64,000 nt of DNA from a virus (IMGVR_UViG_3300021255_001258:63449-127448), one strand, 5' to 3'; positions 11,815 through 45,042 are shown, counted from the first letter of the stretch. Program-made: numbers and translations. The notes: a model not told the origin generated them from the letters alone.

Positions 11815-12070
11815 TTTTATCACCTTCTTTCTGCTGTCCGCGCCTTGTCCAAAAATCATATGCTTCGTATGTCTCATCTCGTTTAAACACGAACAATACT
11901 ACTTTTTTACCAGGATTTTTGCGATCATCCGAAATAACAACATCAACTGGAACAATACCAAATTCATTTATATAGCAATCTACTTGCTGCAGGTTAAGTA
12001 TTCGTACATAATCTTTGCTGAAATAATCATATTTTTTGCCAGAAATTCCGCGTTTAATATATTCTTCCAT
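11798..12070 (-). CDS. Hypothetical phage protein
   Basis: 90-aa ORF in the operon; VFVFKRDETYEAYDFW motif. Confidence 0.6.
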   Translation of the reverse strand: MEEYIKRGISGKKYDYFSKDYVRILNLQQVDCYINEFGIVPVDVVISDDRKNPGKKVVLFVFKRDETYEAYDFWTRRGQQKEGDKIGTNS

Positions 12071-29167: not shown

Positions 29168-29202
29168 ATTTTTTACCTCCTATAGTAAATTCCTAGTTAT
29201 TA

Positions 29203-29269
29203 AATGCGAGAAGAGAAGTCTAGGAGCACTTCTCTCATGAGGTTAATTACTCCTCATGTTTCTCGCATT
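29203..29269 (-). promoter_or_regulatory. Three-way-junction RNA leader of the HNH gene with an anti-SD loop
   Basis: Stems AATGCGAGAA/TTCTCGCATT, CATGAGG/CCTCATG and GAGAAGT/ACTTCTC; loop GCTCCTAG is complementary to the TAGGAG RBS. Confidence 0.6.
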
Positions 29270-29272
29270 AAA

Positions 29273-29360
29273 CAAGCCCGGAGGGACTCGAACCCTCATT
29301 CGCGGCATCAGACGCTCTTACAGATTTAGAGTCTGCTGTTTTGCATTAAACTACGGGCCT
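29273..29360 (-). tRNA. Amber suppressor tRNA, anticodon CTA, long variable region
   Basis: Acceptor AGGCCCG/CGGGCTT plus G73; D stem GTTT/AAAC; anticodon arm GCAGA-CT-CTA-AA-TCTGT (anticodon 29327-29329); T arm GAGGG-TTCGAGT-CCCTC. Confidence 0.88.
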
Positions 29361-29390: not shown

Positions 29391-29870
29391 TTATTCCTTC
29401 TTATCAGTTGAGAAAATTACACCCTCGTCCTCACCAATAATCTCTTTAGCGATATCTGCCATCAGAGTAGAGGTAATGCCATGAGGATCCCCCATATTGT
29501 CGTTCCAGAACTGGATAACCTCCGGTTTAAACACAACATAACTAATCGGATTCGACATAATTCCTTCAATAGTCGTTGCATAAGAAAATGCCGGATTGCC
29601 CTCAAACGCTCTCTTAATATAATCAATTCTCTTCGGTTCATCATTCGCCGGAATTACTTCGATAAACACGGATACATTTCCAAAATCTTTCTGTACTGGC
29701 AGAAGCTCATCAAGAGCAGTAGCTTTTTCATGACTTTCAACATACAGCTTGATATGCATCTCGTCCTCATCAAACTCAACTTTAATATCAGGATCTGGAC
29801 TAAACATAGCTTCAAGTTTTCTATAGTACTCCACCCAAGGCGGAGACAGTTTTGTCTTTTTATCTTCCAT
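29391..29870 (-). CDS. Conserved phage hypothetical protein
   Basis: MEDKKTKLSPPW..., GAGG RBS. Confidence 0.7.
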   Translation of the reverse strand: MEDKKTKLSPPWVEYYRKLEAMFSPDPDIKVEFDEDEMHIKLYVESHEKATALDELLPVQKDFGNVSVFIEVIPANDEPKRIDYIKRAFEGNPAFSYATTIEGIMSNPISYVVFKPEVIQFWNDNMGDPHGITSTLMADIAKEIIGEDEGVIFSTDKKE

Positions 29871-29964
29871 AATATCTTCCCTCATATAAAATAGGAGAGG
29901 AGTGAATCGTAGCCACTCCTCCCCACTAAGCAATATGTACCGAGACGGTACTACGCTGGATACC

Positions 29965-30531
29965 TTAATTCATCCTATATTTAATGATTGCCTGTGCAGC
30001 TTCATCAGTAAGATGCGAAGATCCACGGTATGCAAATTGGCGCTTCGTGTCGCCAAGACATTCGCAGTAAAAGAATCCCCTATGATCAGGGTCCCACTCA
30101 AAGCAAGTCTGCGGATCCTCATCCATTCCGGGATCATCCTCCTCGATTTCTTCGTAATCAAATGTAAACAGACGGAATTCAGCCTCTACAAGATCGTGAT
30201 TTTTAACATCCACAATAAACTTCGAATTCACCGTATCCTGCACAAAAATTACTCCGTCAACGCCAATATAACATCCATGATTCTCGTTAAATGCCTTTTC
30301 AATATAAAGAGCTTTATCATCACTATCAATTGTAAGGATATATTCACGGTTATAAGTCATAGCATCAATATCTGCAAAAGCAATATCAAATTCCTCGACA
30401 TTCATAAAATACATGACGAGATCCTTAATAGTTTTATTGTCGCCAATAACAACTACCTAATCATTTTTATCTAGTACATCATATAGCTCGTCGAGCATCC
30501 CCAACGGCTCCTCATAAAATTCCATTTTCAT
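29965..30531 (-). CDS. Hypothetical acidic protein (1 TAG)
   Basis: Extends to ATG 30531 through one TAG; the most upstream clearly recoded gene seen on the minus arm. Confidence 0.65.
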
Positions 30532-30549
30532 GTTTATCCCTTTTCTTCC

Positions 30550-31755
30550 TTAAAATTTAATATCATATATACAATCAAGCCCTTCATTCTCAGAAATAAC
30601 GCACAACGCCTGTTCGGGTCTATTTTTAAGCCGTTTGTCAACACAATACTGATCACTGCCGCTAAGACATCCAGACTGCACAACTTTTGTGTCGTAATCT
30701 GTCATCAAAGCATTTGTATGCCTATGTCCAGTTAATATAATATTCGGCTTAATCCCAAACATTCTACGCATATTGTCTGCGGCCACACTAAAAGAATCTT
30801 TGTCACCATGGATAGCAAAAACATTCATGTTTCTAACAGGAAATATTGCAACACTCTGTTCTATATCATTTTTATGACAAATCACATTCTTATAGTTTTG
30901 TAATTTAGCCTGTAAAAAAGGAATTAAAAGATTATCCATATTTTCGTGAGCCAAACTCTCATCTTTCTTTGGAGTTATCCGGCTATGATTTCCTGGAGCG
31001 ACATATACATTCACACATTCAAAATACTGTGAAAGTACAGCCAAGAACTCGCATACGTAATCAGTTACCGTCAAAAACTGGTCAATTAAATCTTGATTAT
31101 TCTCTATACGTAATATTGGATGTATTAATCCAGACAATAATTCCGAACAAACAACATAAGCATCTCTTGCACCATGTCTTTTCGCAATTTCAATAACCCT
31201 GTCTAAATAATGATTCAATCGTTTGTTTAATATATCAGTATTATATTCGTTCCAAAAATTTTTAACTTCAATTCCACTATGTAAATCATAAAGCGGAATT
31301 AACAAATCACAATTACAATTATCTGTAAAAAAATCAGATTTTCCAGAATATTCTAAGGCCATTTTTGCTCCAGCCTCGACAATTGCATTTGTGAACTGTT
31401 CTATATATGATTCTTTACGAGCTTCTTCACGTAGAAGCCTCCGATATTCATTGCGCTCATCACGAACTTTTACCTTTTCTTTCTCAAGTTCACGACGTAG
31501 CTCAATTAATTCCTCCGCAGAAGCATCAACAGTATCATCAGAAAACTCCTCACGAGTCTGCTTCATAAGCGCAAATTTTTTCCTGTATGCGCTCTCGCTA
31601 TAATATTCTGACGGATCATCACGCAGCTCTTTATTAAATATATCTGCAAGTTCCGTCCATGTCAGATCTAATAAACCATCATTTTTGGCTTGACCCAACC
31701 TATAAATATAACGCATTTCACTTTCGCCCGGAAGTCGGGCAGTAGAAGAGGACAT
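30550..31755 (-). CDS. Calcineurin-like metallophosphoesterase with N-terminal HTH/coiled coil
   Basis: DLH, GNH, HGD and GHRH motifs. Confidence 0.8.
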   Translation of the reverse strand: MSSSTARLPGESEMRYIYRLGQAKNDGLLDLTWTELADIFNKELRDDPSEYYSESAYRKKFALMKQTREEFSDDTVDASAEELIELRRELEKEKVKVRDERNEYRRLLREEARKESYIEQFTNAIVEAGAKMALEYSGKSDFFTDNCNCDLLIPLYDLHSGIEVKNFWNEYNTDILNKRLNHYLDRVIEIAKRHGARDAYVVCSELLSGLIHPILRIENNQDLIDQFLTVTDYVCEFLAVLSQYFECVNVYVAPGNHSRITPKKDESLAHENMDNLLIPFLQAKLQNYKNVICHKNDIEQSVAIFPVRNMNVFAIHGDKDSFSVAADNMRRMFGIKPNIILTGHRHTNALMTDYDTKVVQSGCLSGSDQYCVDKRLKNRPEQALCVISENEGLDCIYDIKF

Positions 31756-31758
31756 ATA

Positions 31759-31980
31759 TTAGTCCTCCTCAAAGCCTTCGCTTAAATCTTCCTCGGCTTT
31801 TGTAACAATCGAGAGTTCGACAAACATTCCCCTAAACGGGGCAAAACATTTTGCAACGTCAATGGTTGCCGCATCTCCGTCACTGTTTGTATAGTCAATC
31901 ATATCTCCATCGGGAGAAAGGGTGCCTTTAATCGCAAAACGAGTGTTAGTTTTACTGTTGTAAGTATAATTCTTTGCCAT
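31759..31980 (-). CDS. Small hypothetical protein (YonK position)
   Basis: AGGAG RBS; 73 aa. Confidence 0.55.
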   Translation of the reverse strand: MAKNYTYNSKTNTRFAIKGTLSPDGDMIDYTNSDGDAATIDVAKCFAPFRGMFVELSIVTKAEEDLSEGFEED

Positions 31981-32000
31981 AGTTTTTCTCCTTTTAATCA

Positions 32001-32615
32001 TTATAAAATTTCATCAAGATCTATGTCTTTCCCTATAACTTTATCAACAACGCCGAGTTCAACAGCCTTTGCGCATGTCATATAATATTCTTCATCATAG
32101 ATTTTGTCATAAAATTCCTCGGTCATTTTAGTCCTAGATAAAACAAAATCTTTTGTGTTAGAATCCAGCTCTTTGAAGAACCTCATTGTATCTTGGGCTT
32201 TCTTTGAAGTATTGGAAATTGCAACACTTCCATCATGCTGTAAGAATACACTGTTTTCAAATGCAATCCTTTCATGACAAGCAAGAAAAATTGTATAACA
32301 AGCACTTGCCACAAGTGAAAGACCAATCCCAATGACTGGTGTCTTACTTTGCATGATTACATCTACAACATTTCTTGATACAAACGTATCTCCGCCAACG
32401 CTACTCATATAAATCCTGATTTTCTTTCGACACTCAATAGGCAATCCAATATCTTCTTTATTCCATTTGAGAATATAGAGTACAATATCTTCAACCATAC
32501 TGTCATTTACTTCGTCATTGAACACGAGAACTCTATCCTCAAGATATTCCCTATACATTTCCTCATACGCTGATGACTGATTACCGATTCCGGTCGGAAT
32601 TACAAAACCATCCAT
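32001..32615 (-). CDS. clpP: ClpP-like protease
   Basis: IYMSSVGG, VASA (catalytic Ser), FLQHD (His) and AVELGVVD motifs. Confidence 0.85.
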   Translation of the reverse strand: MDGFVIPTGIGNQSSAYEEMYREYLEDRVLVFNDEVNDSMVEDIVLYILKWNKEDIGLPIECRKKIRIYMSSVGGDTFVSRNVVDVIMQSKTPVIGIGLSLVASACYTIFLACHERIAFENSVFLQHDGSVAISNTSKKAQDTMRFFKELDSNTKDFVLSRTKMTEEFYDKIYDEEYYMTCAKAVELGVVDKVIGKDIDLDEIL

Positions 32616-32618
32616 TCC

Positions 32619-32936
32619 TTATACCTCCGCATATTTCTCGATTTTTTTAAATCTCTCCTCAATAGCAGCATCAACTCTGCGCTGTACTTCTTTCTCAATC
32701 AGTGCATCCATGTCTGCTTTAGAAGTAGTAGCCTTTGCGACTTCATTTTCTTTCATAATGCGGTCAAGGTCTTCTTTAAACTTTTCGTCCGACAAAAATA
32801 CAAAAACTGATCTTTTGTGATCTGGATCCGTTGAATCGGCTTTAATATCAACAATTCTATTGTCACACGCCAGCAGCTGACGAGCGATTCGTGCTTTTCT
32901 AATTACCTTGCATTCCATATTCTCTGTATTCGGCAT
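32619..32936 (-). CDS. Hypothetical protein
   Basis: 105-aa ORF with RBS. Confidence 0.6.
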   Translation of the reverse strand: MPNTENMECKVIRKARIARQLLACDNRIVDIKADSTDPDHKRSVFVFLSDEKFKEDLDRIMKENEVAKATTSKADMDALIEKEVQRRVDAAIEERFKKIEKYAEV

Positions 32937-32985
32937 ATCATTTTTCTCCTTTTAATTCCTGTAAAATAAAAAAGAGCCATTCGGC

Positions 32986-33792
32986 TCATTGAAATAAATT
33001 CGCAAACAATCTAGATGTTTCACTACGAACATCTTCTTCGAGAGTAATCGCGGCAAACAGTGGATTTCCTTTAAAAGCATTACACATTTTCAACAGTGGT
33101 GAATTCGCACTACCATTTGCGGCTTGTCTATAATCGCCATCAAAAACAATCTTGCTGCCTTCACCAACACGAGTCCCGATCATGCGTATTTGCTTTTCCG
33201 ACAAATCTTCTGATTCGTCAATCACCATCCAGGTATCTTGATAAGATGTTCCTTTCATATAAGTTGGAATATTAAAATCCAAGATTCCCTGTTGTTTTAA
33301 TTGCTCAACCTCCCAATCCTTACCATCAAGCTGTTGAATTAATGGCAACGTCCAGACTTCATTCTTCTGGCTAAAACTGCCAGGAAGGTAGCCCAACTCT
33401 CTTCCCTCACCCATGGGTTCTCTGACCCCAAGGATATGAGATTGCCACCCCTTCTCTTTGACAGAAAAGAGTCCCATCTGCATCGCAAGAAAACTCTTAC
33501 CACTTCCGTATTGACCGAGTATTGCACATATTGTAATATTCGGATTATTAAGCATATCCAAAGCACATCTCTGCAATGAATTCTTTCCTTTAAGTATTTT
33601 TGATGGCGGCAATTTTAACGGGACAAATTTAGCCCCATCCCAACGCATTTCGCGTTCAGTTCCATCATCAGTATTTTTAATAATTAGATACTCATTACAA
33701 TTCCAAATAGAAGTATTAATTTCAGACATATACTCATTTATCTGATCCGTATTTCCTTCTACTAATTTGTAACCTTTGTATATTTCGTCCAT
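32986..33792 (-). CDS. phoH: PhoH-like ATPase
   Basis: GQYGSGKS, LGYLPG, IDESEDL, TRVGEGSK..GD..Q and VRS motifs. Confidence 0.85.
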   Translation of the reverse strand: MDEIYKGYKLVEGNTDQINEYMSEINTSIWNCNEYLIIKNTDDGTEREMRWDGAKFVPLKLPPSKILKGKNSLQRCALDMLNNPNITICAILGQYGSGKSFLAMQMGLFSVKEKGWQSHILGVREPMGEGRELGYLPGSFSQKNEVWTLPLIQQLDGKDWEVEQLKQQGILDFNIPTYMKGTSYQDTWMVIDESEDLSEKQIRMIGTRVGEGSKIVFDGDYRQAANGSANSPLLKMCNAFKGNPLFAAITLEEDVRSETSRLFANLFQ

Positions 33793-33798
33793 TAAGCA

Positions 33799-33996
33799 TC
33801 ACCGCCCATCATGTACTTCTATAATTTCACGCTCTTTATATTCCTTTAAAAGCTTCATGGCTCTCGGATTTGTGGAAAGCCAATATCTTTTGCCAGAAGA
33901 TTTGTGAGTTTTAGAACTCATGTGGACACAATGCCCTTGTCCGTGATCGCGGATATATTTAGCTTCATTTGCGCTAATCTTAATCAAGTATTTCAC
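33799..33996 (-). CDS. Small hypothetical protein
   Basis: 65-aa ORF, AGGAG RBS. Confidence 0.5.
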   Translation of the reverse strand: MKYLIKISANEAKYIRDHGQGHCVHMSSKTHKSSGKRYWLSTNPRAMKLLKEYKEREIIEVHDGR

Positions 33997-34070
33997 TCCT
34001 AATTAATATATTTACGCACAAAAATAGGGCAGCAATAGCCACCCTAAAAACAATGCGCATAATGTTTAAT

Positions 34071-34144
34071 TGCAGGAGCCAGATTTGAACTGACGACCTC
34101 CAGAGCATGAGTCTGGCGAGCTACCGAACTGCTCCATCCTGCTA
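34071..34144 (-). tRNA. tRNA-Met (CAT), initiator-like
   Basis: GGAGCAGTTCGGTAGCTCG D-arm, CT-CAT loop, GTTCAAATC T-loop, 1:72 mismatch. Confidence 0.8.
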
Positions 34145-34150
34145 TAAAAA

Positions 34151-34465
34151 TTGCAACCATTGCAGCCGCATACAAACCACTGAGTCAATTACACAACACT
34201 CAAAAACTTTCCTGCGGATTTTATCGAGTATTAGTCTTTATTACGTAAACTTTATGTTATAAAGAACGCTGACATTTAACCGCTAAACGCTAAATGCTAA
34301 ACATTGAGCTTTTACCCCACATTTGTATATAACGCACCAATCCTTCTAAGCGTTATATTCTCCTAATAACAGGATTCCACATCCATTATAAAGAAAATAT
34401 GTTTTGAAGCGGAGATAAGGCTCTCCGCAGGCCGTGTAAGTTCGCAGTTTTCGCAATAGTTGCAA
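34151..34465 (-). ncRNA. Candidate structured ncRNA downstream of the DIP1984-like gene
   Basis: 13-bp closing stem TTGCAACTATTGC/GCAATGGTTGCAA, internal long-range pairs and a 7-nt-period repeat. Confidence 0.65.
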
Positions 34466-34473
34466 AATGTATA

Positions 34474-35109
34474 TTATACCTCTATATATGTCACTGAGTT
34501 ACTAATGCTCAGTCTAACGTCAACATCTGCTTCGAATGCGTCAATGTCGGCATCCATAGCTTGGATTTTTGCATACAGATTTAATGGATCAACAAGTTCC
34601 CACTCATTCTTTGCCCTATAAGGTTCAGAAATCGCATTTAAATCCGCTTCAGATACCTTCTTTTCGGAATCTTTTCCCAAGAAAGTCTCAAGCATTTTGT
34701 CAACCTGAGTATCAACCCTTTTATTTTCTTTCTCAACATTATTCGTTGCTGTAGCCCACTGAGACTTCATTGTCTGAAGCAGCATCTTATCATACATAAT
34801 TGAGTTCTTGCGCTCAATGGCTTCGGCTACAGTATATTTCTTTCCGGCAATTTCAACCATTGTCGTAGCATTGCTTTGGACAATCGCCGATTTTAATTTC
34901 GCCCGATTCTCAATTAAATCAGAGACAGACTGATACGAAGCTTTAGCGTTTGCCTCGAAATTCTCCAATTTAAAATTACCAACTTTGTCCGATGACTTCT
35001 TCTTGCTATCCACAAAAGAAGCAGAAGAGAGTGCCTTATTTATTTTCTGGTCATACAATTTAAGTTCAGTCAACGCCTCTGTAATACTAATTTTTCTTGT
35101 ATCAGCCAT
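34474..35109 (-). CDS. DIP1984-like helical protein
   Basis: ITEALTELK, LKSAIVQSNATT..TVAEAI and C-terminal VD..LS..N pattern; family recognised by eye. Confidence 0.6.
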   Translation of the reverse strand: MADTRKISITEALTELKLYDQKINKALSSASFVDSKKKSSDKVGNFKLENFEANAKASYQSVSDLIENRAKLKSAIVQSNATTMVEIAGKKYTVAEAIERKNSIMYDKMLLQTMKSQWATATNNVEKENKRVDTQVDKMLETFLGKDSEKKVSEADLNAISEPYRAKNEWELVDPLNLYAKIQAMDADIDAFEADVDVRLSISNSVTYIEV

Positions 35110-35253
35110 GATAATCTCCTTTTAATCATATTTGGCGGATTTAAGGTCTCCGCCGGGACCAATATTTAACTATGGCTATTCGGCTCATTGGAACCCCAAA
35201 ATTTTCATATTTAAGACACGCCACCGCCTGTGTCACCATAGCACAAATAATCA

Positions 35254-35526
35254 TTAGTTAATTGCTTCTTTAACAGCCTTGCCGAATTTTACCTTCGGAG
35301 CATACTTTGCCGGAACTTTAACGGCTTCCCCAGTTCTCGGATTTCTAGCTGTCCGAGCCTCCTTGTAATCAGCCGTAAACTTAATGCCAGACCACGGAGT
35401 AACCCCGCCTTCATCCTTCATATGATCAACAATTACTTCCATAATAAGATCCAGAACTTCCTTTGTATCCTTCTTAGTCATTCCGGTCTTTGCAGCTGTT
35501 TCGCTAATAAATTCTGCACGATTCAT
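35254..35526 (-). CDS. hup: HU-family DNA-binding protein
   Basis: MNRAEFI...ARTARNPRTGEAVKVPAKYAPKVKFGK. Confidence 0.92.
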   Translation of the reverse strand: MNRAEFISETAAKTGMTKKDTKEVLDLIMEVIVDHMKDEGGVTPWSGIKFTADYKEARTARNPRTGEAVKVPAKYAPKVKFGKAVKEAIN

Positions 35527-35755
35527 AATTCATTTCTCCTTTTAATCCTTAATTTTATCTATAGTAAAAATCGCGATTAGTGTTTATCCTATACCACACC
35601 AAAGGTTTCGGTTAATCATGATTCCGTATTTATATTACGCCGCACTCGGCAAAAGCGGCGGAAGAGTAGTATCGCAAAAATTCCCCTTCAATAGTGGACT
35701 TTCGTGACCATTAAAAATCCCTTATTTTTATTGGGTTTTACGAATACCAAAACAA

Positions 35756-38404
35756 TTAAGTGTCCCGAAAACCATTATAAAAACATGATAAAAATAAATC
35801 TGGATTAACTTCATAAAGAACTTTCAATAACAATGACCTATTTTTATTAGTTAATCGCGCTATTGTGTTTTTGTTTCTGATAAAACCTGGATATAACATA
35901 AATGCTCGATTAATTAACCAATACACTAAACCGCGATAGCTGCTTGAAAGATTCATACCCCTAATCTTTTGAATTAATTCATCAAAATCACTACGAAGTA
36001 AAATGAAATCATTATAATCGTAGTCATCTGTTCGTTTCTGGTCTAACACATTAATTCTATAATTCAAAAGAGTATAATCTTCTATAAATTTCTCAACTTT
36101 TTTATTTATCTTTCTGCTTCCGGTATCCTTTATGGGAATTAAAAAATCCTTAAATAATAATCCATCTGCAACCCTTTTCGGATATCTAAGTTTCAAGTCT
36201 TGTAAATAATCCATCGGACATTTGAGACTCTTATTGATTTTTTCGGAATCAAAACCTCGTTTAATTGTCTTCCAAAATTTCGGATAACCGTTTATCTCAA
36301 TATCCATGTCTTGTTTTATTAGTTTGATTTCCTCTGCGATTTGGATGTTAAAGCGGCGCTTTGCGGAATCGATTGCCGCCTGAGCAAGAACACTGAGTTC
36401 TGCAACATAATCATTGTATTTTGGATCTTCAAATGAATACGAATAAGACTGGGCAATCTGAGCAATATTAGAAGACTCACCTATGTCTCGCTGAGATCCA
36501 GCAAGAAGATTATCCATAGCCGCAAAATCAGCCATTGAGCTATCATACGTATTTGTATCTTTTGGAATGTTATTCACAATTGTAGGATATTCAGCATAAC
36601 AATATCTTGCATGGTCTACAATGTTTTGTTGATTAGTAACATAAAGACTGTCGGAATCCTGGTCGCTACCATTATTCCGATCCTGAAAATCCGTACCAAT
36701 CATATTGACAGCAACAATCTGCGGAGAGAAGTTGAAATATTTTTCAATACGTTCGTCTATGATATTGTGGAGGTAGCTCATATTGAAACGACCATTAAAA
36801 GGACTTCTGAATCCGGCAAGATACTCACCGTCTGAAAATCTATATGTAAAACACTGAATTGTACCCGGCTCATACTTCAGTGTAGTATCTAAATCGCAAT
36901 CTTCCTGATTGCCAGTGGCGGCATAAATCAGCATTGCATAAGGAGAACCAACGATTGTAAGATTGTCTCCATTTTGCAAAAGTTCCCCACTTTTGATGTT
37001 AAGAAGATAATTAGAAAGTATATGCTTTTTCCGCTCCCTATAATAATCACATCTTACAAAATCTGGATTCCACTCGCATAGATCAAGCAATACCTCATAG
37101 TCATTCGCAAAATTAAGATTTTTGCGCAAGAATGTTTTAAACTCCTCGTCATCATCTTTAAGCATCTGGATATAATCTACCGTCTCCTGGCACACTTCCT
37201 TCATAGTATTAATATCAAGTGAATTAACAATCTGGTAACTCATTTTCTGATATCTGCCAAGTTTACTCGGATGTGAAAACTTTACCACACCAAACATGCA
37301 GTCGTTCTTATGAACCCATTCACACCAGTATTCATAAGAAATATCCATCTTCATCCATTTAACTGCGTTCGTAGTTGTAATGAGTTCGATGTCTTTAAGA
37401 TAATGGTCATTACCCCAACAATCCTTTACGGTTCTTGTATTGTAGTCCCATCCGTTCTTATTACACCAATCTCGGAAAAACAGCTGAATATTTGCATGAA
37501 ACGCTGCCATCTTTGTAAAGTGATGCCGGAGAAGAACATAACCATTTGCCCACACCGGGAAAATAGATGTATCAATAAGAGCTTGTCCGTCAAAAAGAGT
37601 ATTCTTTAATTCATATTCGTTAATCCATTTTGCCACACAATGTTTATCCTCATCGGTTTCTACACTCACGACATCACGAGTGAAAAATCTATCAACGTCA
37701 TCCAATATCAGGATATTTTCCGGGTGAATTTGTACTCTTCCGACAATACCGCTAGAAATCAGTGGGGCATAAGCAGAGACTTCAACAATCTTTGCGTTAT
37801 GTTCTGGCAACTTAATCCCCATATAAAGAAAATCATGAGCCGCCTCATACAATTCATCTCTGATAAAAGTACAAGTACCTTTCTTTGCTTTTCCGGTAGA
37901 ACGGTACAGCATTTTGTAATGAATTGTTTCAGTCTTTATTACTTTGCCAGATTTATTATGTGTTTCATACTTAACGTCAACACCGTTTACATAGCATATT
38001 TCTCGGACTTCTTGAGTATTGCGTTTTACATATATATTTTTATTTTTATATGCATCACGAATTAGTTCATTCGTTCTGTCTCTATTATGTGCTGCCTTCT
38101 CCATGAGATACTTATCATTGTCGGCTTTTGCTTTTTTATAGTCGGCGGAAAATTTTGTGGCATTTTTGTGGAGGTGTGCCACTTCTTCCTGATAAGATCT
38201 TGTCCCGTAGTTAAACTCAAGACAGATTACATCCCTGGTCGAGCCATCTTTCCAAACAGTCAAACCATTATCAAGCAAGAAGTCAAGAAACAGGCTGTTT
38301 ACCAACATTGCATCCTTATACTCAAAATGACTTCTGAGTCCAAGGTTGTACTCTATATTAGTGGAGGCCTCAATGTTTTTTATCTTTACTCCGTAATCGC
38401 TGAT
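35756..38404 (-). CDS. yonO: YonO-like single-subunit (double-psi barrel) RNA polymerase
   Basis: FDGQ, LLRHHFTK, FRSP and NGSDQDSD (DxDxD metal loop), IDSAK motifs; adjacent to HU. Start is either ATC 38404 or near 38308-38311. Confidence 0.82.
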   Translation of the reverse strand: MSDYGVKIKNIEASTNIEYNLGLRSHFEYKDAMLVNSLFLDFLLDNGLTVWKDGSTRDVICLEFNYGTRSYQEEVAHLHKNATKFSADYKKAKADNDKYLMEKAAHNRDRTNELIRDAYKNKNIYVKRNTQEVREICYVNGVDVKYETHNKSGKVIKTETIHYKMLYRSTGKAKKGTCTFIRDELYEAAHDFLYMGIKLPEHNAKIVEVSAYAPLISSGIVGRVQIHPENILILDDVDRFFTRDVVSVETDEDKHCVAKWINEYELKNTLFDGQALIDTSIFPVWANGYVLLRHHFTKMAAFHANIQLFFRDWCNKNGWDYNTRTVKDCWGNDHYLKDIELITTTNAVKWMKMDISYEYWCEWVHKNDCMFGVVKFSHPSKLGRYQKMSYQIVNSLDINTMKEVCQETVDYIQMLKDDDEEFKTFLRKNLNFANDYEVLLDLCEWNPDFVRCDYYRERKKHILSNYLLNIKSGELLQNGDNLTIVGSPYAMLIYAATGNQEDCDLDTTLKYEPGTIQCFTYRFSDGEYLAGFRSPFNGRFNMSYLHNIIDERIEKYFNFSPQIVAVNMIGTDFQDRNNGSDQDSDSLYVTNQQNIVDHARYCYAEYPTIVNNIPKDTNTYDSSMADFAAMDNLLAGSQRDIGESSNIAQIAQSYSYSFEDPKYNDYVAELSVLAQAAIDSAKRRFNIQIAEEIKLIKQDMDIEINGYPKFWKTIKRGFDSEKINKSLKCPMDYLQDLKLRYPKRVADGLLFKDFLIPIKDTGSRKINKKVEKFIEDYTLLNYRINVLDQKRTDDYDYNDFILLRSDFDELIQKIRGMNLSSSYRGLVYWLINRAFMLYPGFIRNKNTIARLTNKNRSLLLKVLYEVNPDLFLSCFYNGFRDT

Positions 38405-38733
38405 ATCTCATCACCATCCCCGAAAATGTATTTGTACAATTCCTCCGACGATGAAATTGTAACGCGCTGGCCATTTATGTCTGTATAAACATTATTATTC
38501 TTACCACGGCCATAGTTATTGGACAAGCAAAATTCTTCGATTGCATTGTAATAAAAATCATCCGGTAATAACAGTCTGAGTAATTTTAAAACTGCCACCT
38601 TATTGTCTGGTTCTATAAGAAATCCATCGGCATTATATTTCTTATATAATTTATTTTTGTCTTTTTGATAATCATCTATAGTTTGCATCGAATTGATTAC
38701 CTCTACAAAAGTATCTTTATCAATAACTTCCAA
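38386..38733 (-). CDS. Hypothetical protein, paralog of 40258-40596
   Basis: Shared (I/M)DK..F..I...MQ N-terminus and D..G.....SS.E.LY C-terminus. Confidence 0.65.
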   Translation of the reverse strand: MEVIDKDTFVEVINSMQTIDDYQKDKNKLYKKYNADGFLIEPDNKVAVLKLLRLLLPDDFYYNAIEEFCLSNNYGRGKNNNVYTDINGQRVTISSSEELYKYIFGDGDEISAITE

Positions 38734-38754
38734 TAAACATCACTCCTTCATAAA

Positions 38755-40032
38755 TCATGCCGTTCGGATACTCGTGACTTCAGTCATGAGAGGAGAACGG
38801 CTTCTCCTTTCGATTAATAATGTTTGTCTCGATTCTAGTTTTTGTAATTTTTTGCAAGACACAGATCCGTTGTTCACTTTATCTCCAAACAGATTTCTTA
38901 TGTCAAAATATCCGCTTTTTCTTCTCCCGAAAATATAATAAGATTTACCATTATATTTGACTTTATCAAATAATTGAAACCCATTTATATATTTTTCGGC
39001 TTGATTAAGCTTCTTTTTTCCTTCTTTTAAGATGTTTGTTTTGTGTATTTGGCGATTTGTTTTTCTAACTTGTTTATAGAAGTAATAGTAATCAAGTGGT
39101 TTAGTATCCATATTTCCCGTAATGCAGTACGCATCAATATAATGTTCTTTTGGTAAATTATTTCTAATCCTAATATTTTTCGTAATGTAGCCATAAGTCA
39201 TTCCAACACTTGGGTACCGCTCCCTCAACCTATTATAAAACGTCCACCGCATAATATTCATAAATGCTGCGTCTCTAAACGATTTTTCACGTTTAATTAT
39301 TAAATTTAGCTCTCCTCTATGGTATTTCTTGTGACATGTTTCACATAGTGTTATCAGATTACTTGGGGCGTTTCCACCTATTTTTCTAGATTCTATATGA
39401 TGCACGTTCAGAATATTATCTTTTGACTTGCCATGACAACATTGACACTCATGATTATCTCTAAAAATCACATACTCCCGAACATTCCAGAATCCTAATT
39501 GATTACCGCGTTGATACTCTTCGCCCGAAATATCAGGGTTTTTAATCTTTTGGATATCAAATGACGCGGTTTCTACAACAATTCTGCTCACTGGAAGAAT
39601 CATATAAATATTCTTGATAACTTTTAGGTGTGCCTGTATTTTATTCTCAATTGACGGTGCAAGCCATCCCTTATTTTTTGAATGCACCCGATTTAAGAAT
39701 TTCGGTTGTCGATACCTCGTTTTACGATTTCTCCTACTTCTTCTATTTTGTCTGCGTGTTGATAAATTCTCTACGATATCGTCTCGAAGTTCAACATTTG
39801 CTGCATACAATTCTTTCTTATCTGTCGTTGCGGATAATCCGATGTACTTGCTTCCAGCGTCCACGCCAAGGGTTATCGGCTGTTTATAGCCAGAAGATCC
39901 ATATAACAATTGAATTGTAAATGGTTCCGTTCTGATCACTTTTGCTTTGCCGTCTCTTAGCAAGTGTCTAGCTTTTGCTGGACTACATGGCATTAACGGC
40001 TTACCATATTTGTTTAGTACGTACACTATCAT
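38755..40032 (-). CDS. iscB: IscB RNA-guided endonuclease (OMEGA)
   Basis: PLMP N-terminus, RuvC-I GVDAG, Arg-rich bridge helix, RuvC-II VVET, HNH (HH..GGN..NLITLCETCH), RuvC-III HYIDA. Confidence 0.95.
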   Translation of the reverse strand: MIVYVLNKYGKPLMPCSPAKARHLLRDGKAKVIRTEPFTIQLLYGSSGYKQPITLGVDAGSKYIGLSATTDKKELYAANVELRDDIVENLSTRRQNRRSRRNRKTRYRQPKFLNRVHSKNKGWLAPSIENKIQAHLKVIKNIYMILPVSRIVVETASFDIQKIKNPDISGEEYQRGNQLGFWNVREYVIFRDNHECQCCHGKSKDNILNVHHIESRKIGGNAPSNLITLCETCHKKYHRGELNLIIKREKSFRDAAFMNIMRWTFYNRLRERYPSVGMTYGYITKNIRIRNNLPKEHYIDAYCITGNMDTKPLDYYYFYKQVRKTNRQIHKTNILKEGKKKLNQAEKYINGFQLFDKVKYNGKSYYIFGRRKSGYFDIRNLFGDKVNNGSVSCKKLQKLESRQTLLIERRSRSPLMTEVTSIRTA

Positions 40033-40272
40033 GTAGTGTTCCTCCTATTCCTAAGTTAGTTACCCTTCGACAATGTTATCTATACTTGTCTAATCGACCG
40101 TTCCCAGGTTGACTGTTCCTACCCATTAGAACTGTTTACAGAGCCTGCACAGAGCCGTAGGTTAGGGTGTACGCCTACGGGTGTGATAATATAGATAACG
40201 TAGATCTCGAAGATCTTAATCTAGTCAACAACGGACTTTTCAAGCCCGTGACTTTAGTCATGGGTTATTGAC
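38759..40272 (-). mobile_element. IS200/IS605-family IscB element (non-autonomous, no tnpA in window)
   Basis: Left end GTCAATAACCCATGACTAAAGTCACGGGCTT; right end CTCATGACTGAAGTCACGAG followed by ATGA. Confidence 0.85.
40045..40272 (-). ncRNA. omegaRNA (HEARO-type) scaffold
   Basis: Non-coding structured region directly upstream of iscB with GTTGACTAG, CTACGTT and ACATTGTCGAAG segments typical of these scaffolds. Confidence 0.8.
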
Positions 40273-40596
40273 CTCTTTAACCAGTAAATCATAAAGCTTC
40301 TCCGGCGAACTTAAATCTATATCAACTACATTGCCATCTTCATCAGTTTCGGTGATGCACCCCGGCTTCCATGTTTTGCCAAAGTCCAGCCCGAACACGA
40401 AATACTCGATGGTGTCAACATCATCAAATATAAATGCTAATGCCTCAATCAACTCACTCATTAACTCTGAGGAATTACTTTCACCAAATTCAATATTTCG
40501 CTTCCGCAGCATCCTGTTTATTTCAAGATCAGCCTCCCAACAAGTCTGCATTCTGTGCATGATTTTGAGGAACTGTTCTTTGTCCATTATCTTCAT
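40258..40596 (-). CDS. Hypothetical protein whose 3' end is supplied by the IscB element
   Basis: The last codons (VNNP-stop) lie within the element's left end. Confidence 0.7.
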   Translation of the reverse strand: MKIMDKEQFLKIMHRMQTCWEADLEINRMLRKRNIEFGESNSSELMSELIEALAFIFDDVDTIEYFVFGLDFGKTWKPGCITETDEDGNVVDIDLSSPEKLYDLLVKEVNNP

Positions 40597-41348
40597 GACA
40601 CGCCAGCCTTTGCCAATGTTCCACGCACCATGGAGCGTACCATATACTTCATCAATTCTCCGCTAGGATTATTGTATATAGCCTTCGAACACATATCTGT
40701 AACATGTTCTGCCAACTCTTCGTCCGTCATGTTGCCCTTCATTTTATTGCAGCCCTCATGAACCGCACGAAGATTTTTGATGCTATTTGTACCGCCGCGA
40801 CTCAATGGAACAATATGATCTAGCGTATAATTTGCTTTATATAATGGTTTTCCGCAGAGTTCACAAACTCCGTCCGATTTTTCAAAAACTGCCACACGAA
40901 CTTCTTCTGGAAAAACAATACGCTTTGTAGAATCAGCAAGAGCAGTATTTAATACCTCAAACTTTTCAACGTCCTTTACCGGAACAGGTTCGCTCGAACG
41001 ATTCTGCCGCACAAATTTTTCGGTAATAACAAACTTGATATCTGCATCCAGCCTGTCTCGGTATGTATCAAAATATTCGAATGCAGCATCCGCAGAACTA
41101 AAACTCCGCGCTTTCTTTATTTCAGTTACGACATTGCCGTCATTCCCAACAAATTTCATGGGAGTGGAAATAACATAGTCATTGCCTTTAGAAGAATTAC
41201 GTTCTTTATAAACGCTATATTGCGGACGTTCTGTGATAAATGCGGTGGCTCGGCTCATCTTCATGTGTTTAGCGGCAGCTGGACAAGTTGCACCTTCTGC
41301 CATTCCAGTCAAAAAACGAATATCATTAGACAGATAATATTTACTCAT
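40593..41348 (-). CDS. HNH endonuclease domain protein
   Basis: CELCG...TLDHIVPLSRGGTN...NL....CNKMKG. Confidence 0.85.
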   Translation of the reverse strand: MSKYYLSNDIRFLTGMAEGATCPAAAKHMKMSRATAFITERPQYSVYKERNSSKGNDYVISTPMKFVGNDGNVVTEIKKARSFSSADAAFEYFDTYRDRLDADIKFVITEKFVRQNRSSEPVPVKDVEKFEVLNTALADSTKRIVFPEEVRVAVFEKSDGVCELCGKPLYKANYTLDHIVPLSRGGTNSIKNLRAVHEGCNKMKGNMTDEELAEHVTDMCSKAIYNNPSGELMKYMVRSMVRGTLAKAGVS

Positions 41349-41658
41349 TTTCCAGATCCTTTCTTCTTGGCGTTCTTAAGACGCTCACCAATTGCCCGAC
41401 GTTCTTCTTCTGTATATTCGCGTTCTCTGGTCATGGTTTTACTGCGGAATGAAATAAGCCTCTTTGGACATTCATATGTCTTGCCTACAATATCTCCGCC
41501 ATGGCGGCTGATACCCACCAACCGCCATCCATCTGGATTGCCCTCAACATGTTTGTCCAATTTGGTCATATAAGTATAGTCACTCGTATAAACCGTGGCC
41601 ACATCAGAATTTCTGTCCATCTGAATGGTTGTCTCTTGTTCTTCAATCGGTGTTCTCA
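41345..41658 (-). CDS. Hypothetical phage protein
   Basis: EQETTI..D...ATVYTSD pattern; start approximate. Confidence 0.6.
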
Positions 41659-41840
41659 TCTTTAGCCTCCTCGGAAATTTCCTCATTATTCAATAGCTTC
41701 TGCATCAGCGCCAACATTGCCTTCTGACGCTTGACTTTGAACGGTTTACATGGAGTAGAGCAGTACCGGTATCTCCGGCACTGTACACAATCTCCATCAG
41801 TTTTCCACTGTTCATTCCATTTTGGCTCTCTATTCATCAT
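41643..41840 (-). CDS. Small Cys-rich protein
   Basis: EQWKTDGDCVQCRR..YC..PC. Confidence 0.6.
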   Translation of the reverse strand: MMNREPKWNEQWKTDGDCVQCRRYRYCSTPCKPFKVKRQKAMLALMQKLLNNEEISEEAKDENTD

Positions 41841-42862
41841 GCTTCCTCCTGCTCATTAACGTATTTGTCAACGGCTGCCCGGAATTTTGCCATTAATACA
41901 GGATTTGTTGAAATTGCATATCCAATTGAGCATTTTTTAAATCCGGTCTTTTCGCAAACGGCCTTAACGCAAGCATCAATTTCCGCACGATCCAATAGGG
42001 AATACGCCTTGGTATATGTATTGCTGCTGATTCGACCCGTCTTACTGACACGAGAAACAATATCTCTCACATTTTGTGGACAAATATTGATGTAATATGA
42101 TTTTATAGAGTAAAGATCTGCCGGAAATTCGGGCTTTGTGGCGGCACTCTGAAAATCATCCTTTTGTACCTTATTTTCCGGTGCCTTGAAATTACCCTTA
42201 TTGATAACCACGTAACTATTAATGACCTTCTCAAAGAGGAAACGGAGAGTATCAGATGCTGCAATCATAGAGAGTCCATCTTTTACATTATGTGTCTTCT
42301 TGTAATCCTCCATCAGCGTGGTAATGTTATAGTTATGTTCTTTCATTTTCTCGTATGCATAACTATAGACATTTTCTTTATCCCAGGAATTCTTCAGGCA
42401 GATAGAAGCGATTTTTCCGCGAGCCTCCTCGACCCAAAGATCCTGCTGATTCTGATTCAGCGTAGAAGAGAAGAGAGAGATAGAATCTCCGGTAGCCCGA
42501 CTTCCTTTAATTGTATCTGCAAGACCAATCAGATAATCACGAAGTTGATTCATCATTGCATCCGTAACGGCACTTGCAATATACTTTGGTAATTTTGCAA
42601 TAATTGCCTCTGTCATCTGGATAAGATTTTCATTCATGCGTTTCTCGGCAGCAAGCAATGCTTTTCCAACAAATTCAATGTTGTCTGCCAAATTCGTAAG
42701 ATTTTTATTGTATTCTGCCGTAACCGTGCCAATAGCAGATGTAAATATTGCCTGTAGAGCCTCAATCTTTTTATCTGTTTCTGTGGAAAGATGAGTTGTA
42801 TACAGAGCGAGTTCTTCATTTGTGAGCGGGGTTTCAGTAATATTCTGCATTTTCTGTGGCAT
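41837..42862 (-). CDS. Hypothetical coiled-coil protein
   Basis: 341-aa ORF, AGGAGG RBS. Confidence 0.65.
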   Translation of the reverse strand: MPQKMQNITETPLTNEELALYTTHLSTETDKKIEALQAIFTSAIGTVTAEYNKNLTNLADNIEFVGKALLAAEKRMNENLIQMTEAIIAKLPKYIASAVTDAMMNQLRDYLIGLADTIKGSRATGDSISLFSSTLNQNQQDLWVEEARGKIASICLKNSWDKENVYSYAYEKMKEHNYNITTLMEDYKKTHNVKDGLSMIAASDTLRFLFEKVINSYVVINKGNFKAPENKVQKDDFQSAATKPEFPADLYSIKSYYINICPQNVRDIVSRVSKTGRISSNTYTKAYSLLDRAEIDACVKAVCEKTGFKKCSIGYAISTNPVLMAKFRAAVDKYVNEQEEA

Positions 42863-42893
42863 CTTTTGTCCTCCTTGATAATATACGTTTAAT

Positions 42894-44066
42894 TTATTCG
42901 TTAATTGCTACGTCAATATAAGACTCATTATCCGTTGGATTTTGACTTTCTATATCCACTATTTTTTCATGCTTGTTAAATACCGATAACATGTCCCGGT
43001 ATGCCTCATAATACAAATCCATTACCTGGGCAAAATTTGCATTTACAGTTTCATTGCGCAATATAGAAGCCATTACTTTATTGTGCGAGATTTGTACAAG
43101 GCGGTCTCGGAAATTTTCGATGTCCGAGTAAAGACTATTGAGATATTTATTTGCCTCGAGATCTGGGCGCGGACTTCCGGCAGGATCATTAAAAGAGAAG
43201 TCTCCACGGGCGAATTTTTCGTTTTCATCCAGACGCTGATTCGCCTTCTCGTTTTTGAAACGCAGAAAATCCACTTCGTTCTGTAATTCTATTACCCGAT
43301 CCTCGGCTTTGTCGGCGCGGGATTTTTGCGCAAAATAATCAGGATTTTCCGCAGCCAGCGCAGCCTGTAAATCAGCAATGATGGATTGTTGTGTTTCAAT
43401 GGTGACTCGCAAAGCCTGCAGTTCATCATTGTTGTCAGCAGAAGCGGAATTCTTTTTTGCCGGAAGTTTTGGCTCCAGTTCCTTCTTTATTAAACCGTAT
43501 GCCTTATTCGTTGAAATAGCCCCCGTGTTCCAGTCGGCATATTCACCTTCGGAAAGATCGGCAGAATGTTCGACAATGAATTTCATGCGCTCATATTGCT
43601 TGCCGGAAATACCGAGACGACGAGCCACAATATCACGAGTTTTGCCAACCTCCTGATGTGGAAAATTTTCCACCTCTGCTTTTACCGATTTTGCGGCGTT
43701 ATTATTCTGAGTTGAAATCCTGCGCTCTTCTGCCTTTATACTTTCTATGCGCTCTAACCGAATCCCAGTATCTACGATCTCTTCCCTATTAAAATCCTTC
43801 CTATATCTATTCTCCGCAAATTCAACGGCGAGTTCGCGCTCTGCATCTGCGGTGTCCATGATTATTGCTGGAATGTCTGTCCAGCCGAGTTCGCGGCAAG
43901 CAGTAAGACGCCGTTCCCCGGCCAACAGTTGATATTGCTTGTTGACAAGGACAGGAGAGAGAAGACCGAGTTCGCTGATATTGGCGGCAAGTGCGGATAT
44001 GTCGCCAAGATCTTTGCGGATTCGATTGGTAATGGTGATTGAGTTAATGGGAATTGATTGAAGCAT
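42894..44066 (-). CDS. ParB/Srx N-terminal domain protein with HTH and coiled coil
   Basis: GLLSPVLV...LLAGERRL.A...LG, EN..RKDF motifs. Confidence 0.85.
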   Translation of the reverse strand: MLQSIPINSITITNRIRKDLGDISALAANISELGLLSPVLVNKQYQLLAGERRLTACRELGWTDIPAIIMDTADAERELAVEFAENRYRKDFNREEIVDTGIRLERIESIKAEERRISTQNNNAAKSVKAEVENFPHQEVGKTRDIVARRLGISGKQYERMKFIVEHSADLSEGEYADWNTGAISTNKAYGLIKKELEPKLPAKKNSASADNNDELQALRVTIETQQSIIADLQAALAAENPDYFAQKSRADKAEDRVIELQNEVDFLRFKNEKANQRLDENEKFARGDFSFNDPAGSPRPDLEANKYLNSLYSDIENFRDRLVQISHNKVMASILRNETVNANFAQVMDLYYEAYRDMLSVFNKHEKIVDIESQNPTDNESYIDVAINE

Positions 44067-44108
44067 AGTGGGCCTCCTTGAGCGTGAAGATTGTTTAATA
44101 TATTATTT

Positions 44109-44137
44109 ACAATAGCACATTATTTTTGGTTTGTCAA
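44109..44137 (-). promoter_or_regulatory. Sigma-A promoter of the ParB-like operon
   Basis: TTGACA-17-TATTGT with extended TG. Confidence 0.7.
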
Positions 44138-44142
44138 CATAT

Positions 44143-44964
44143 TTAATTTATTATTTCTGGATTGCTACCGGAAATTTCCTGCATCCAATTCTGTAGTAAT
44201 TCGCGCATCCTCCGGCTTGGAATATAAACCCAGATTTCTTTGCCGTCCCGGATCGCCGACCGCCAGATCCACTGAAGTATCTCGGAGAGGGCATATTGGT
44301 TGGTGTTGATCTCAACATTATGATAATGAAAGAAATCCTCAAAATATTCATTCCAGAGTAATTTCTTCTCTTTGTAGGTGATGCATTTCTTATGTTGCGA
44401 TTTACATTCAATATGAATAAGTTGCGGATTCACAGGAAGATCGATTGAATTATGGTTTATATCATAAGCATCCAGTATTCTACATAATAGATAATTATTG
44501 ATTACAGTAACAGATTTAAATCTCTTAAAATTCATCGGAGAGTAAATTCTATATTGAGTTTCTTCCTTATAATATAAACCTCCGTATAATGCACAAGATT
44601 TTTCATCGGAAAATACACCGTAGTAATCCTGGCGCTCTTTTCTCCAAATCAGCTGATGAGTTGCCTGATTATAATCACAATAATATTCGATAAGAGTTTC
44701 AAAATCTTGAACATTTAATTTTTGCGTACTAAATAATTTTACTTGTCCATCTATAATCAAATCATAGTCTTTATGATAAGGCCAAAATTCATGATGGCGG
44801 CAAAGTGTCCTGAATTGAAGCGGAGCAACAATTAAATCTATACCTTTATCTAATAGCTTAACCGTTTCAAAAATATCATCCGCTCTGGATAATACTTTTG
44901 CGCCTCTATAATACTTCTTAATTCTTTTCGCTTCTGTCGGTGATTCTGTCAATATAATCTTCAT
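44143..44964 (-). CDS. Degenerate helicase-like phage protein
   Basis: C-terminal YALSEILQWIWRSAIRDGKEIWVYIPSRRMR motif; no intact Walker A/B seen. Confidence 0.55.
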   Translation of the reverse strand: MKIILTESPTEAKRIKKYYRGAKVLSRADDIFETVKLLDKGIDLIVAPLQFRTLCRHHEFWPYHKDYDLIIDGQVKLFSTQKLNVQDFETLIEYYCDYNQATHQLIWRKERQDYYGVFSDEKSCALYGGLYYKEETQYRIYSPMNFKRFKSVTVINNYLLCRILDAYDINHNSIDLPVNPQLIHIECKSQHKKCITYKEKKLLWNEYFEDFFHYHNVEINTNQYALSEILQWIWRSAIRDGKEIWVYIPSRRMRELLQNWMQEISGSNPEIIN

Positions 44965-45042
44965 TGCATATTCTCCTATAATACGTTTCGGCAGTAACTG
45001 TCCCCAAGGGGACAAAAAGTGCACCTCATTCGAAAAGGGTCA

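Follow-up and report, generated by a model that had tools for sequence, protein, structure and literature searches.

Candidate two-armed suppressor tRNAs of recoded phages: a phage amber tRNA with a putative glutamine pseudo-anticodon in its variable arm

Gut phages that read TAG as glutamine (code 15) and encode suppressor tRNAs have been described repeatedly (Borges et al., preprint 10.1101/2021.08.26.457843; Peters et al., PMC9523058; Yutin et al., PMC7886860), so that recoding of late genes to TAG=Gln with a phage suppressor tRNA is already established. The charging of these tRNAs is listed as unresolved by Borges et al. (10.1101/2021.08.26.457843). The question is raised by the locus considered here, in which a tRNA with a CUA anticodon lacks some of the bases by which glutaminyl-tRNA synthetase (GlnRS) recognizes its substrate. 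The locus lies in a 64,000-nt stretch of DNA (the window); it makes up the latter half of an IMG/VR virus record of 127,448 bp, for which the estimated completeness is 65%. An earlier note, made from the sequence of the window, had proposed that the tRNA inserts glutamine and may be charged by a synthetase encoded by the phage outside the window; the evidence for the tRNA, for the residue that it inserts, and for the means of charging is taken in turn below.

The suppressor tRNA and the code boundary

ARAGORN identifies an 88-nt tRNA with anticodon cta at 29273-29360 of the minus strand (the strand being a correction to the earlier note), and the Rfam tRNA model scores 57.9 bits (E 6.5e-10) over the same positions. 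The minimum free energy fold is a cloverleaf with a small extra hairpin, and ARAGORN, Rfam, this fold, and covariation within the family described below agree on a 7/5 cloverleaf with a fifth arm. The cloverleaf with CTA, A1-U72, and G73, the short D-loop with no GG, the 22-nt variable region, and the absence of an encoded CCA had all been noted earlier and hold when the minus strand is read; what had escaped the earlier note is that the variable arm ends in the loop of a glutamine anticodon arm. The acceptor stem is formed by AGGCCCG (29354-29360), which pairs with 29274-29280 through A1-U72, G2.U71, G3-C70, and four more pairs; its 3' strand, CGGGCUU, is followed by the discriminator G73 (29273), the two occupying 29273-29280 (sequence, Rfam), and the 3' flank is UUU. 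Relatives show compensatory changes in this stem (GGCCCG/CGGGCU versus GGGGCG/CGCCCU). U8 and A9 precede the D arm (29338-29351; sequence, relatives), which consists of G10, a 4-bp stem GUUU/AAAC, and the 6-nt loop AAUGCA, with a single G. The D-loop of the relatives L010, L012, and L015 is AAUGG(A)UUGA, with GG present, and a metagenome scan for the subgroup returned only known members, among them no second copy with the GG-less loop.

The decoding anticodon arm, GCAGA-CUCUAAA-UCUGU, occupies 29320-29336, with CUA at 29327-29329 (ARAGORN, Rfam); its helix is paired in 100% of cells family-wide. Between this arm and the T arm (GAGGG-UUCGAGU-CCCUC, 29281-29297; Rfam, alignment, covariation) lies the variable region (29298-29319), which is assigned as a pseudo-anticodon arm from pairing, alignment, and family counts. 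Its heptaloop, G-U-CUG-A-U (29307-29313, with CUG at 29309-29311), is closed by C-G and G-C, after which 10 nt lead to the T stem. In the subgroup to which this tRNA belongs, the anticodon register gives the extra stem no more than 2 bp; an equally possible alternative pairs GCG/CGC around an 8-nt loop.

The gene begins 30 nt after the last standard-code gene and so sits at a code boundary. Downstream, the late-gene block (3-29167, minus strand), which depends on the tRNA, has 80 in-frame TAG codons in 24 ORFs; it encodes an HNH endonuclease, tRNA-Pro, tRNA-Asn, TerL, portal, head, connector, and tail proteins, including a tape-measure protein of 2,032 aa, and its genes stay open only with TAG read-through. 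One late gene alone carries 35 TAG codons. Upstream, the standard-code block (29391-45024, minus strand) has no in-frame TAG in 14 ORFs. TAG thus makes up 80/368 (22%) of glutamine-type codons in the 24 late ORFs versus 0/132 in the 14 upstream ORFs; none of the genes of the two blocks terminates in TAG. The tRNA at 29273-29360 is the sole CUA tRNA of the 127-kb record. A syntenic relative, L010, has the same order (HNH, tRNA, u180, u188, exonuclease); the 180-aa ORF upstream of the tRNA is common to L010 only. At the level of sequence the tRNA and the code split are established, and the designation of the tRNA as a phage-encoded amber suppressor of unusual build is supported.

The residue inserted at TAG was approached by translating TerL with TAG as X and aligning it to 120 database homologues. 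At columns 50, 72, and 302, the conserved TAG sites, 119-120 of the 120 homologues have Q; the other five of the eight TAG columns are variable. As a control for circularity, 25 TAG-containing ORFs were compared by tblastn with a standard-code prophage in Lachnospiraceae metagenome-assembled genomes (MAGs; L001, L002). The prophage residues opposite TAG are Q in 9 cases (CAA 6, CAG 3), E in 8, N in 3, and scattered others, with no TAG, no Tyr, and no Trp among them. Within a second subgroup (L120), Q is again the commonest residue opposite TAG (7/33), which counts as weak support because the alignments are only 25-48% identical. The TerL columns and the prophage codons bear out the earlier suggestion that the protein contexts point to glutamine, and TAG=Gln is well supported as the predicted code of the late genes.

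Several other elements of the window may be recorded here. Between the tRNA and the HNH gene, the spacer sequence (29168-29272, minus strand) has as its predicted fold a three-way junction of high stability (-36.3 kcal/mol; z = -5.3; 0/200 shuffles equally stable) that stops just short of the HNH ribosome-binding site; the predicted structure may be an element of processing, termination, or translational control. In the standard-code block a HEARO RNA (Rfam RF02033, 127 bits; 40055-40272, minus strand) stands directly upstream of a 425-aa HNH-type ORF (38755-40032; PHROG 119/2214), and the two together constitute an RNA-guided nuclease element of the IscB kind. On the plus strand, 18 kb from the suppressor tRNA, there is an HDV-like ribozyme (RF02682, 53.4 bits) at 47926-47997; minimal HDV-like 'theta' ribozymes are reported to adjoin phage tRNAs and suppressor tRNAs (bioRxiv 10.1101/2023.06.13.544163). 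A tyrosine integrase (10789-11967, minus strand) has the Pfam Phage_integrase domain and an N-terminal SAM-like domain, the latter included only through read-through of 2 TAG codons; the integrases of recoded prophages were reported to avoid in-frame stops (Borges et al., 10.1101/2021.08.26.457843).

Amber and opal tRNAs with two anticodon-type arms

The glutamine-like loop recurs in related tRNAs. Two scans of viral contigs, constrained at the decoding anticodon arm or at the anticodon loop and T loop and nowhere else, gave 25 unique class II-size CUA tRNAs as a sample not selected on the variable region. The motif YUGA is present in the variable region of 23/25 of these versus 4/45 other class II tRNAs of the same loci (Fisher 2.5e-12, a P value overstated by the relatedness of the sequences), and shuffled variable regions contain it in a mean of 3.3 and a maximum of 12 of 25. 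YUGA stands 10 nt before the T stem in 19/23, with two more members at 9 nt and two, of a different type, at 7 nt; on the 5' side the distance floats between 3 and 10 nt. When the loop is set in the anticodon-loop register, N32' N33' Y34' U35' G36' A37' N38', each closing pair forms in 20/21 members, and other registers of the extra arm pair much worse.

In a MAFFT alignment of these 21 members the U-G-A of the loop is among the most conserved columns that were free of search-pattern constraint. The five-helix structure has 92.9% of cells paired and a covariation of 0.70; the value is 0.19 in shuffles and does not exceed 0.16 in slid controls. Pair 52:62 of the extra arm, for example, is CG in 9, GC in 8, UA in 2, and UG in 1. 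Position 34' is C or U only, so that no anticodons other than the two for glutamine occur. In several members the extra loop is CUCUGAA and the decoding loop CUCUAAA, the two differing only at position 36. The 1-72 pair is U-A in 7, A-U in 6, and mismatched in 8, and is never G:C.

A family-specific scan in which YUGA was forced yielded at least 66 further unique members, for a total of at least 81. Among the 81 members listed, features that were not forced are frequent (G10 in 79/81, U33' in 64/81, G73 in 62/81), each closing pair of the extra loop is formed in 79/81, the decoding arm has 29 different stems, and 1-72 is U-A in 26, A-U in 16, A.C in 15, U.U in 12, and G:C or C:G in only 5. TAG recoding nearby is clear at about half of the CUA loci, by a measure (long-ORF coverage) that is noisy and inflated by TAA read-through. 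The family pattern gave one spurious AT-rich match in 401 genomes of the host class, where the family was not found, and blastn of two family members against 50,697 deposited phage genomes gave no match.

Some contigs carry a second kind of CUA tRNA. An ordinary 73-nt class I CUA tRNA adjoins the two-armed one at L008 355-521, L018 4619-4785, and L028 192-358, and likewise in L146 and L164; these class I tRNAs have U1-A72, A73, and an identical T arm. The presence of both in one phage suggests that the two kinds of amber suppressor are not redundant; given these neighbors, the extra arm is dispensable for suppression in general. Non-coding RNAs of other kinds occur a few hundred bases from two-armed suppressor tRNAs on large phage contigs, namely a ROOL RNA (318 bits; L005 2329-2963) and a tmRNA (103 bits; L087 2404-2753).

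Opal suppressors provide an independent comparison. A first opal scan, with the variable region free, had only two tRNASec among the matches listed. An arm-agnostic scan, in which only the UCA anticodon arm and the T loop were fixed, gave a complete listing of 48 tRNA-like sequences, which divide into 26 of the tRNASec type (8-bp acceptor) and 22 of the 7/5 type with G73. The loop of the extra arm contains U-CCA in 22/22 of the 7/5 tRNAs and in 0/26 of the tRNASec, and 21/22 of the former have U72; CCA is the tryptophan anticodon, and together with G73 and A1-U72 it belongs to bacterial tryptophan identity (PMC9976931). The extra stem of the opal family has 4-7 bp and is often 5 bp with a 4-nt tail, which makes it a complete second anticodon arm. 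On the 7/5 contigs TGA read-through raises long-ORF coverage by +0.19 versus +0.04 for TAG, and these loci are TGA-recoded; on the tRNASec contigs the gains are +0.07 for TGA and +0.05 for TAG. The genuine tRNASec-type genes on viral contigs fall in 26 loci between L554 and L596 (e.g., L572, L574, L580).

The class may be defined by a stop-anticodon arm behind the D arm, a hairpin with a sense-anticodon loop, YUG with CUA or CCA with UCA, that stands 9-10 nt before the T stem, and an acceptor end to match; the tRNA of the window shows the stop-anticodon arm, the YUG loop 10 nt from the T stem, G73, G10, and A1-U72. When the two decoding arms are crossed with the two loops, CUA with YUGA is found in at least 72 real tRNAs in at least 92 new loci and UCA with CCAA in 18 real tRNAs, while CUA with CCAA is found in none of 9 stretches and UCA with YUGA gives no UCA tRNA in 41 stretches. 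Of eight representatives tested independently with Rfam, seven score as tRNA. The samples unbiased for the arm are the 25-member amber and the 48-member opal samples, since later scans forced YUGA or CCAA. Descent from tRNAGln or tRNATrp through duplication of the anticodon arm predicts the two-by-two pattern by itself, so the functional case rests on conservation; the crossed result bears on origin and conservation and does not identify what reads the arm. The pseudo-anticodon architecture with its conservation and the specificity of the arms, Gln with CUA and Trp with UCA, are well established in these alignments, and the tRNAs with tandem anticodon-type arms constitute, by their predicted structure, a widespread and so far undescribed family of candidate suppressors.

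Charging with glutamine

In a domain search of the entire 127-kb record, neither a GluRS/GlnRS catalytic domain nor a release-factor domain is found. The earlier note had seen neither a synthetase nor a release factor gene in the window, as is borne out here, and the search of the rest of the genome that it had called for adds neither within the 127-kb record. The likely host family has GlnRS: the MAG that bears the prophage carries a genuine glnS (717 bits versus a curated cut-off of 425.8), and GlnRS is above the cut-off in 39/41 sampled genomes of its family. The tRNAGln genes of the MAG have U1-A72, G2-C71, G3-C70, G73, and G10, the identity set of the E. coli type.

Glutamine identity is known to reside in G73, U1-A72, G2-C71, G3-C70, G10, and the anticodon loop bases U34/U35/G36/A37/U38, and mutation of GlnRS determinants leads to losses of activity of up to 1e5 (PMC9976931). 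The tRNA at 29273-29360 has G73 and G10. Its acceptor stem, compared with the U1-A72/G2-C71/G3-C70 set, has a weak and reversed A1-U72, G2.U71, and G3-C70. Its decoding loop, CUCUAAA, has C34, U35, and A37 and lacks the glutamine elements G36 and U38; the loop of the extra arm, GUCUGAU, has the full set C34-U35-G36-A37-U38.

It is probable that the tRNA is a functional amber suppressor for the TAG=Gln late genes and that its charging by the host GlnRS is aided by the pseudo-anticodon arm. The first arm, in the normal position after the D arm, would decode UAG on the ribosome through CUA; the second, at the position of a class II variable arm, would be a short hairpin that copies the anticodon loop of tRNAGln. 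GlnRS depends strongly on U35 and G36, and when presented with CUA, which has no G36, it would find these bases in the second arm. The remaining identity would come from the body, through G73, G10, and the weak or mismatched 1-72 pair, a weak or open pair being of the kind that GlnRS favors. Charging with glutamine would then be efficient and a phage synthetase unnecessary. For the opal tRNAs, in which UCA has no C34, the extra arm would supply the missing sense anticodon CCA.

That GlnRS reads the second arm, in whatever manner, is what we infer as most likely. Two facts argue against such reading: the anticodon-binding domain of GlnRS is single, and a variable arm normally has its tip at a long distance from the anticodon site. 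Two routes may be envisaged by which the obstacle would be met: the two arms may swap position under the D stem, or the hairpin may swing on long single-stranded tethers along the anticodon stem to the anticodon-binding domain. The decoding arm is canonically joined to the D arm and the second arm canonically joined to the T arm, so that in principle either could stack under the D stem, with the other then jutting out at the hinge. Whether phage tRNAs in general split the tasks of the anticodon in this way, with CUA or UCA for the ribosome and YUG or CCA for the host GlnRS or TrpRS as a common mechanism of hijacking, is to be regarded as an even chance on the present alignments.

Spacing, tail, and several D arms recall tRNAGln. 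The distance from A37 to the T stem is 10 nt in 8/12 phage tRNAGln genes, while class I tRNAs generally favor 11; a spacing of 10 nt corresponds to N38, five stem bases, and a 4-nt variable loop, and the last four tail bases GAAU, CAAU, and CGGU recur as the variable loops of tRNAGln. In 8/21 members the best match of the D-arm region is tRNAGln, with identity of up to 0.95. The molecule thus looks like a tRNAGln in which a new anticodon arm, one that reads amber, may have been placed ahead of the original.

The same features fit the foremost alternative, in which the extra arm is the anticodon arm of the tRNAGln ancestor, displaced when an anticodon arm was duplicated or inserted and kept only as a structural arm of class II type; charging by GlnRS would then need no more than the acceptor end, G10, C34, and U35, as with the classical suppressors supE and su+7. 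Spacing and tail accord with tRNAGln geometry, several D arms are Gln-like, and in some members G36/A36 is the sole difference between the extra loop and the real one. With no mimic, GlnRS also charges the amber form of tRNATrp and that of a tRNASer mutated in its acceptor, the latter having a class II body (PMC9976931), which counts under the main proposal as well, and class I CUA tRNAs coexist with two-armed ones on some contigs. A neutral arm should decay, yet YUGA is kept across 29 decoding-arm stems and unrelated acceptor stems, and the extra stem covaries; the conservation of CCA in the opal suppressors is an independent case. The 35 TAG codons of one gene, moreover, need very efficient suppression, while anticodon mutants of tRNAGln incur the losses of up to 1e5 mentioned above. 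A vestigial arm is for these reasons unlikely, though it is the alternative that survives best.

A conserved anticodon-like loop is evidence of selection, not of a partner, and the loop might be read by something other than GlnRS: a non-discriminating GluRS with GatCAB, a modifying enzyme, a phage protein, or an anticodon nuclease for which the arm is a decoy. The U1-A72 of many members is a mark read by the amidotransferase route too (PMC9976931). GlnRS is present in the likely host family, however, and no conserved candidate for a partner gene is known, the upstream 180-aa ORF being shared with L010 only; another reader is improbable.

Still less probable is an insertion of Trp, Ser, Tyr, or Leu by this tRNA, or a loss of its function through the GG-less D-loop, with the real glutamine suppressor in the missing third of the genome. 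Bacterial tryptophan identity comprises G73, A1-U72, A9, and CCA (PMC9976931), so that A1-U72, G73, and A9 suit a Trp acceptor end as well; G73 with a long arm recalls tRNASer; the short D-loop is unique to this copy; and the record is only 65% complete. The homologues, on the other side, have no W, no Y, and no conserved S or L opposite TAG, and the elements required are wanting: CCA for Trp, A73 and G34 for Tyr, A73 for Leu, and G1-C72/G2-C71 with a long arm stem for Ser. The tRNA is exactly at the code boundary, where the syntenic L010 keeps it.

The earlier note was right that charging calls for a special solution and wrong in the one that it proposed, a phage synthetase encoded outside the window, for which no support was found and in place of which the GlnRS of the host family and the pseudo-anticodon of the tRNA itself would suffice. 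Such an enzyme is the most doubtful of the alternatives: a TrpRS does occur in the 'code change module' of Jade phages (Borges et al., 10.1101/2021.08.26.457843) and about 35% of the genome is missing, but there is no GluRS/GlnRS-type catalytic domain in 127 kb, such enzymes are rare in the survey of Borges et al., whose own proposal is that host enzymes serve, and a pseudo-anticodon gives a self-contained solution.

Relation to known tRNAs

The code 15 phages of the gut resemble the phage considered here in having a CUA tRNA, recoded late structural genes with early genes in the standard code, no synthetase, and a host on the standard code; the papers on them give the presence and anticodon of the tRNA and do not describe a two-arm architecture. 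The classical suppressors charged by GlnRS, supE tRNAGln(CUA), su+7 tRNATrp(CUA), and mutated tRNASer(CUA), likewise have CUA, insert glutamine, and rely on a weak 1-72 pair, G73, G3-C70, G10, and U35, and the tRNASer(CUA) case is one in which GlnRS tolerates a class II body (PMC9976931). They are mutants of cellular tRNAs, however, and have no second arm that restores the anticodon determinants.

The closest analogue is engineered. In a search of the literature for natural tRNAs with a pseudo-anticodon or two anticodons, only the tRNAs of Mukai (2020) were found, in which a pseudo-anticodon V-arm raised the charging of amber suppressors (PMC7590224). In these, too, the V-arm is swapped for an anticodon-arm mimic that recruits a synthetase, and the ribosome accepts the tRNA; they differ in being artificial, built on a 9/3 allo-tRNA chassis with His identity, and charged by a HisRS with a fused extra anticodon-binding domain, with modest effects. 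Geometry was a real obstacle for them (PMC7590224). The phage family, by comparison, is natural, has a 7/5 body, and would serve Gln and Trp with presumably unmodified host enzymes. Anticodon-arm mimics are also found in mRNAs, such as the E. coli thrS operator and yeast synthetase mRNAs (PMC9976931, PMC6542539), where a synthetase recognizes a hairpin that does not decode; these regulate translation of the synthetase mRNA, whereas the phage mimic lies inside a tRNA and would serve aminoacylation.

A built-in pseudo-anticodon arm offers a concrete answer to the charging question that needs no phage enzyme, and its logic is shared independently by the Gln/amber and Trp/opal families. If the proposal holds, these tRNAs would represent a new natural architecture in which identity and decoding are physically apart. 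The amino acid inserted could then be read from the tRNA sequence, which would improve the annotation of alternatively coded phages; the arms would be evolved parts for genetic-code expansion, so far only engineered with modest success; and the mechanism would help to account for the restriction of phages of standard-code hosts to TAG=Gln and TGA=Trp.

Class II tRNAs and the tRNASec and allo-tRNAs (PMC5389517) also have a fifth arm before the T arm and a length of 85-95 nt. The amber family differs from class II tRNAs in having an extra stem of 2-4 bp, a 7-nt anticodon-like loop, and a tail of 4-6 nt, and the identity elements of Leu, Ser, and Tyr are absent from the phage suppressor. A class II tRNATyr was rejected on G73, A1-U72, and C34, as opposed to A73, G1-C72, and G34-U35, only the arm length and anticodon stem agreeing. 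A class II tRNASer was rejected on A1-U72, G2.U71, and an extra stem of 2-3 bp, as opposed to G1-C72/G2-C71 and a long helical arm. Leucine tRNA is excluded by G73 (A73 in Leu), and tRNASec and allo-tRNA by the canonical 7/5 structure with covariation, as opposed to 8/5, 8/4, or 9/3 (PMC5389517). The 'Pyl' label given by ARAGORN follows from the cta anticodon alone. The body of tRNAPyl is atypical, compact in its core and with a variable loop of very few bases; the 22-nt variable region and standard 5-bp anticodon stem stand against it.

The Tyr-like character that the earlier note gave to the anticodon arm is real in that a Lachnospiraceae tRNATyr has GCAGA-CUGUAAA-UCUGU, but it is not diagnostic because the tRNALeu(CAA) of the same genome has nearly the same arm. 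The hybrid body suggested there cannot be shown to derive from tRNATyr, A73, G1-C72, and G34 being absent. Comparison of the body with 230 host and phage tRNAs gave similarities of 0.70-0.80 for many isotypes, and no claim of derivation from tRNATyr or tRNATrp is made.

The scanned contigs and host genomes hold other tRNAs of uncommon form. The class II-size CUA tRNA of L076, in which G1-C72 and G73 go with a D arm like that of tRNASer and a YUG loop is absent, is a possible serine-inserting amber suppressor. Those of L112 and L171 have A73 and a CC-UGAC-GG arm. An odd 91-nt tRNATyr(GUA)-like gene (L065; G001:C13:136477-136566; 36 bits) lies on the standard-code Lachnospiraceae contig that bears the related prophage; its anticodon stem is the same as that of the suppressor, and its D arm is irregular.
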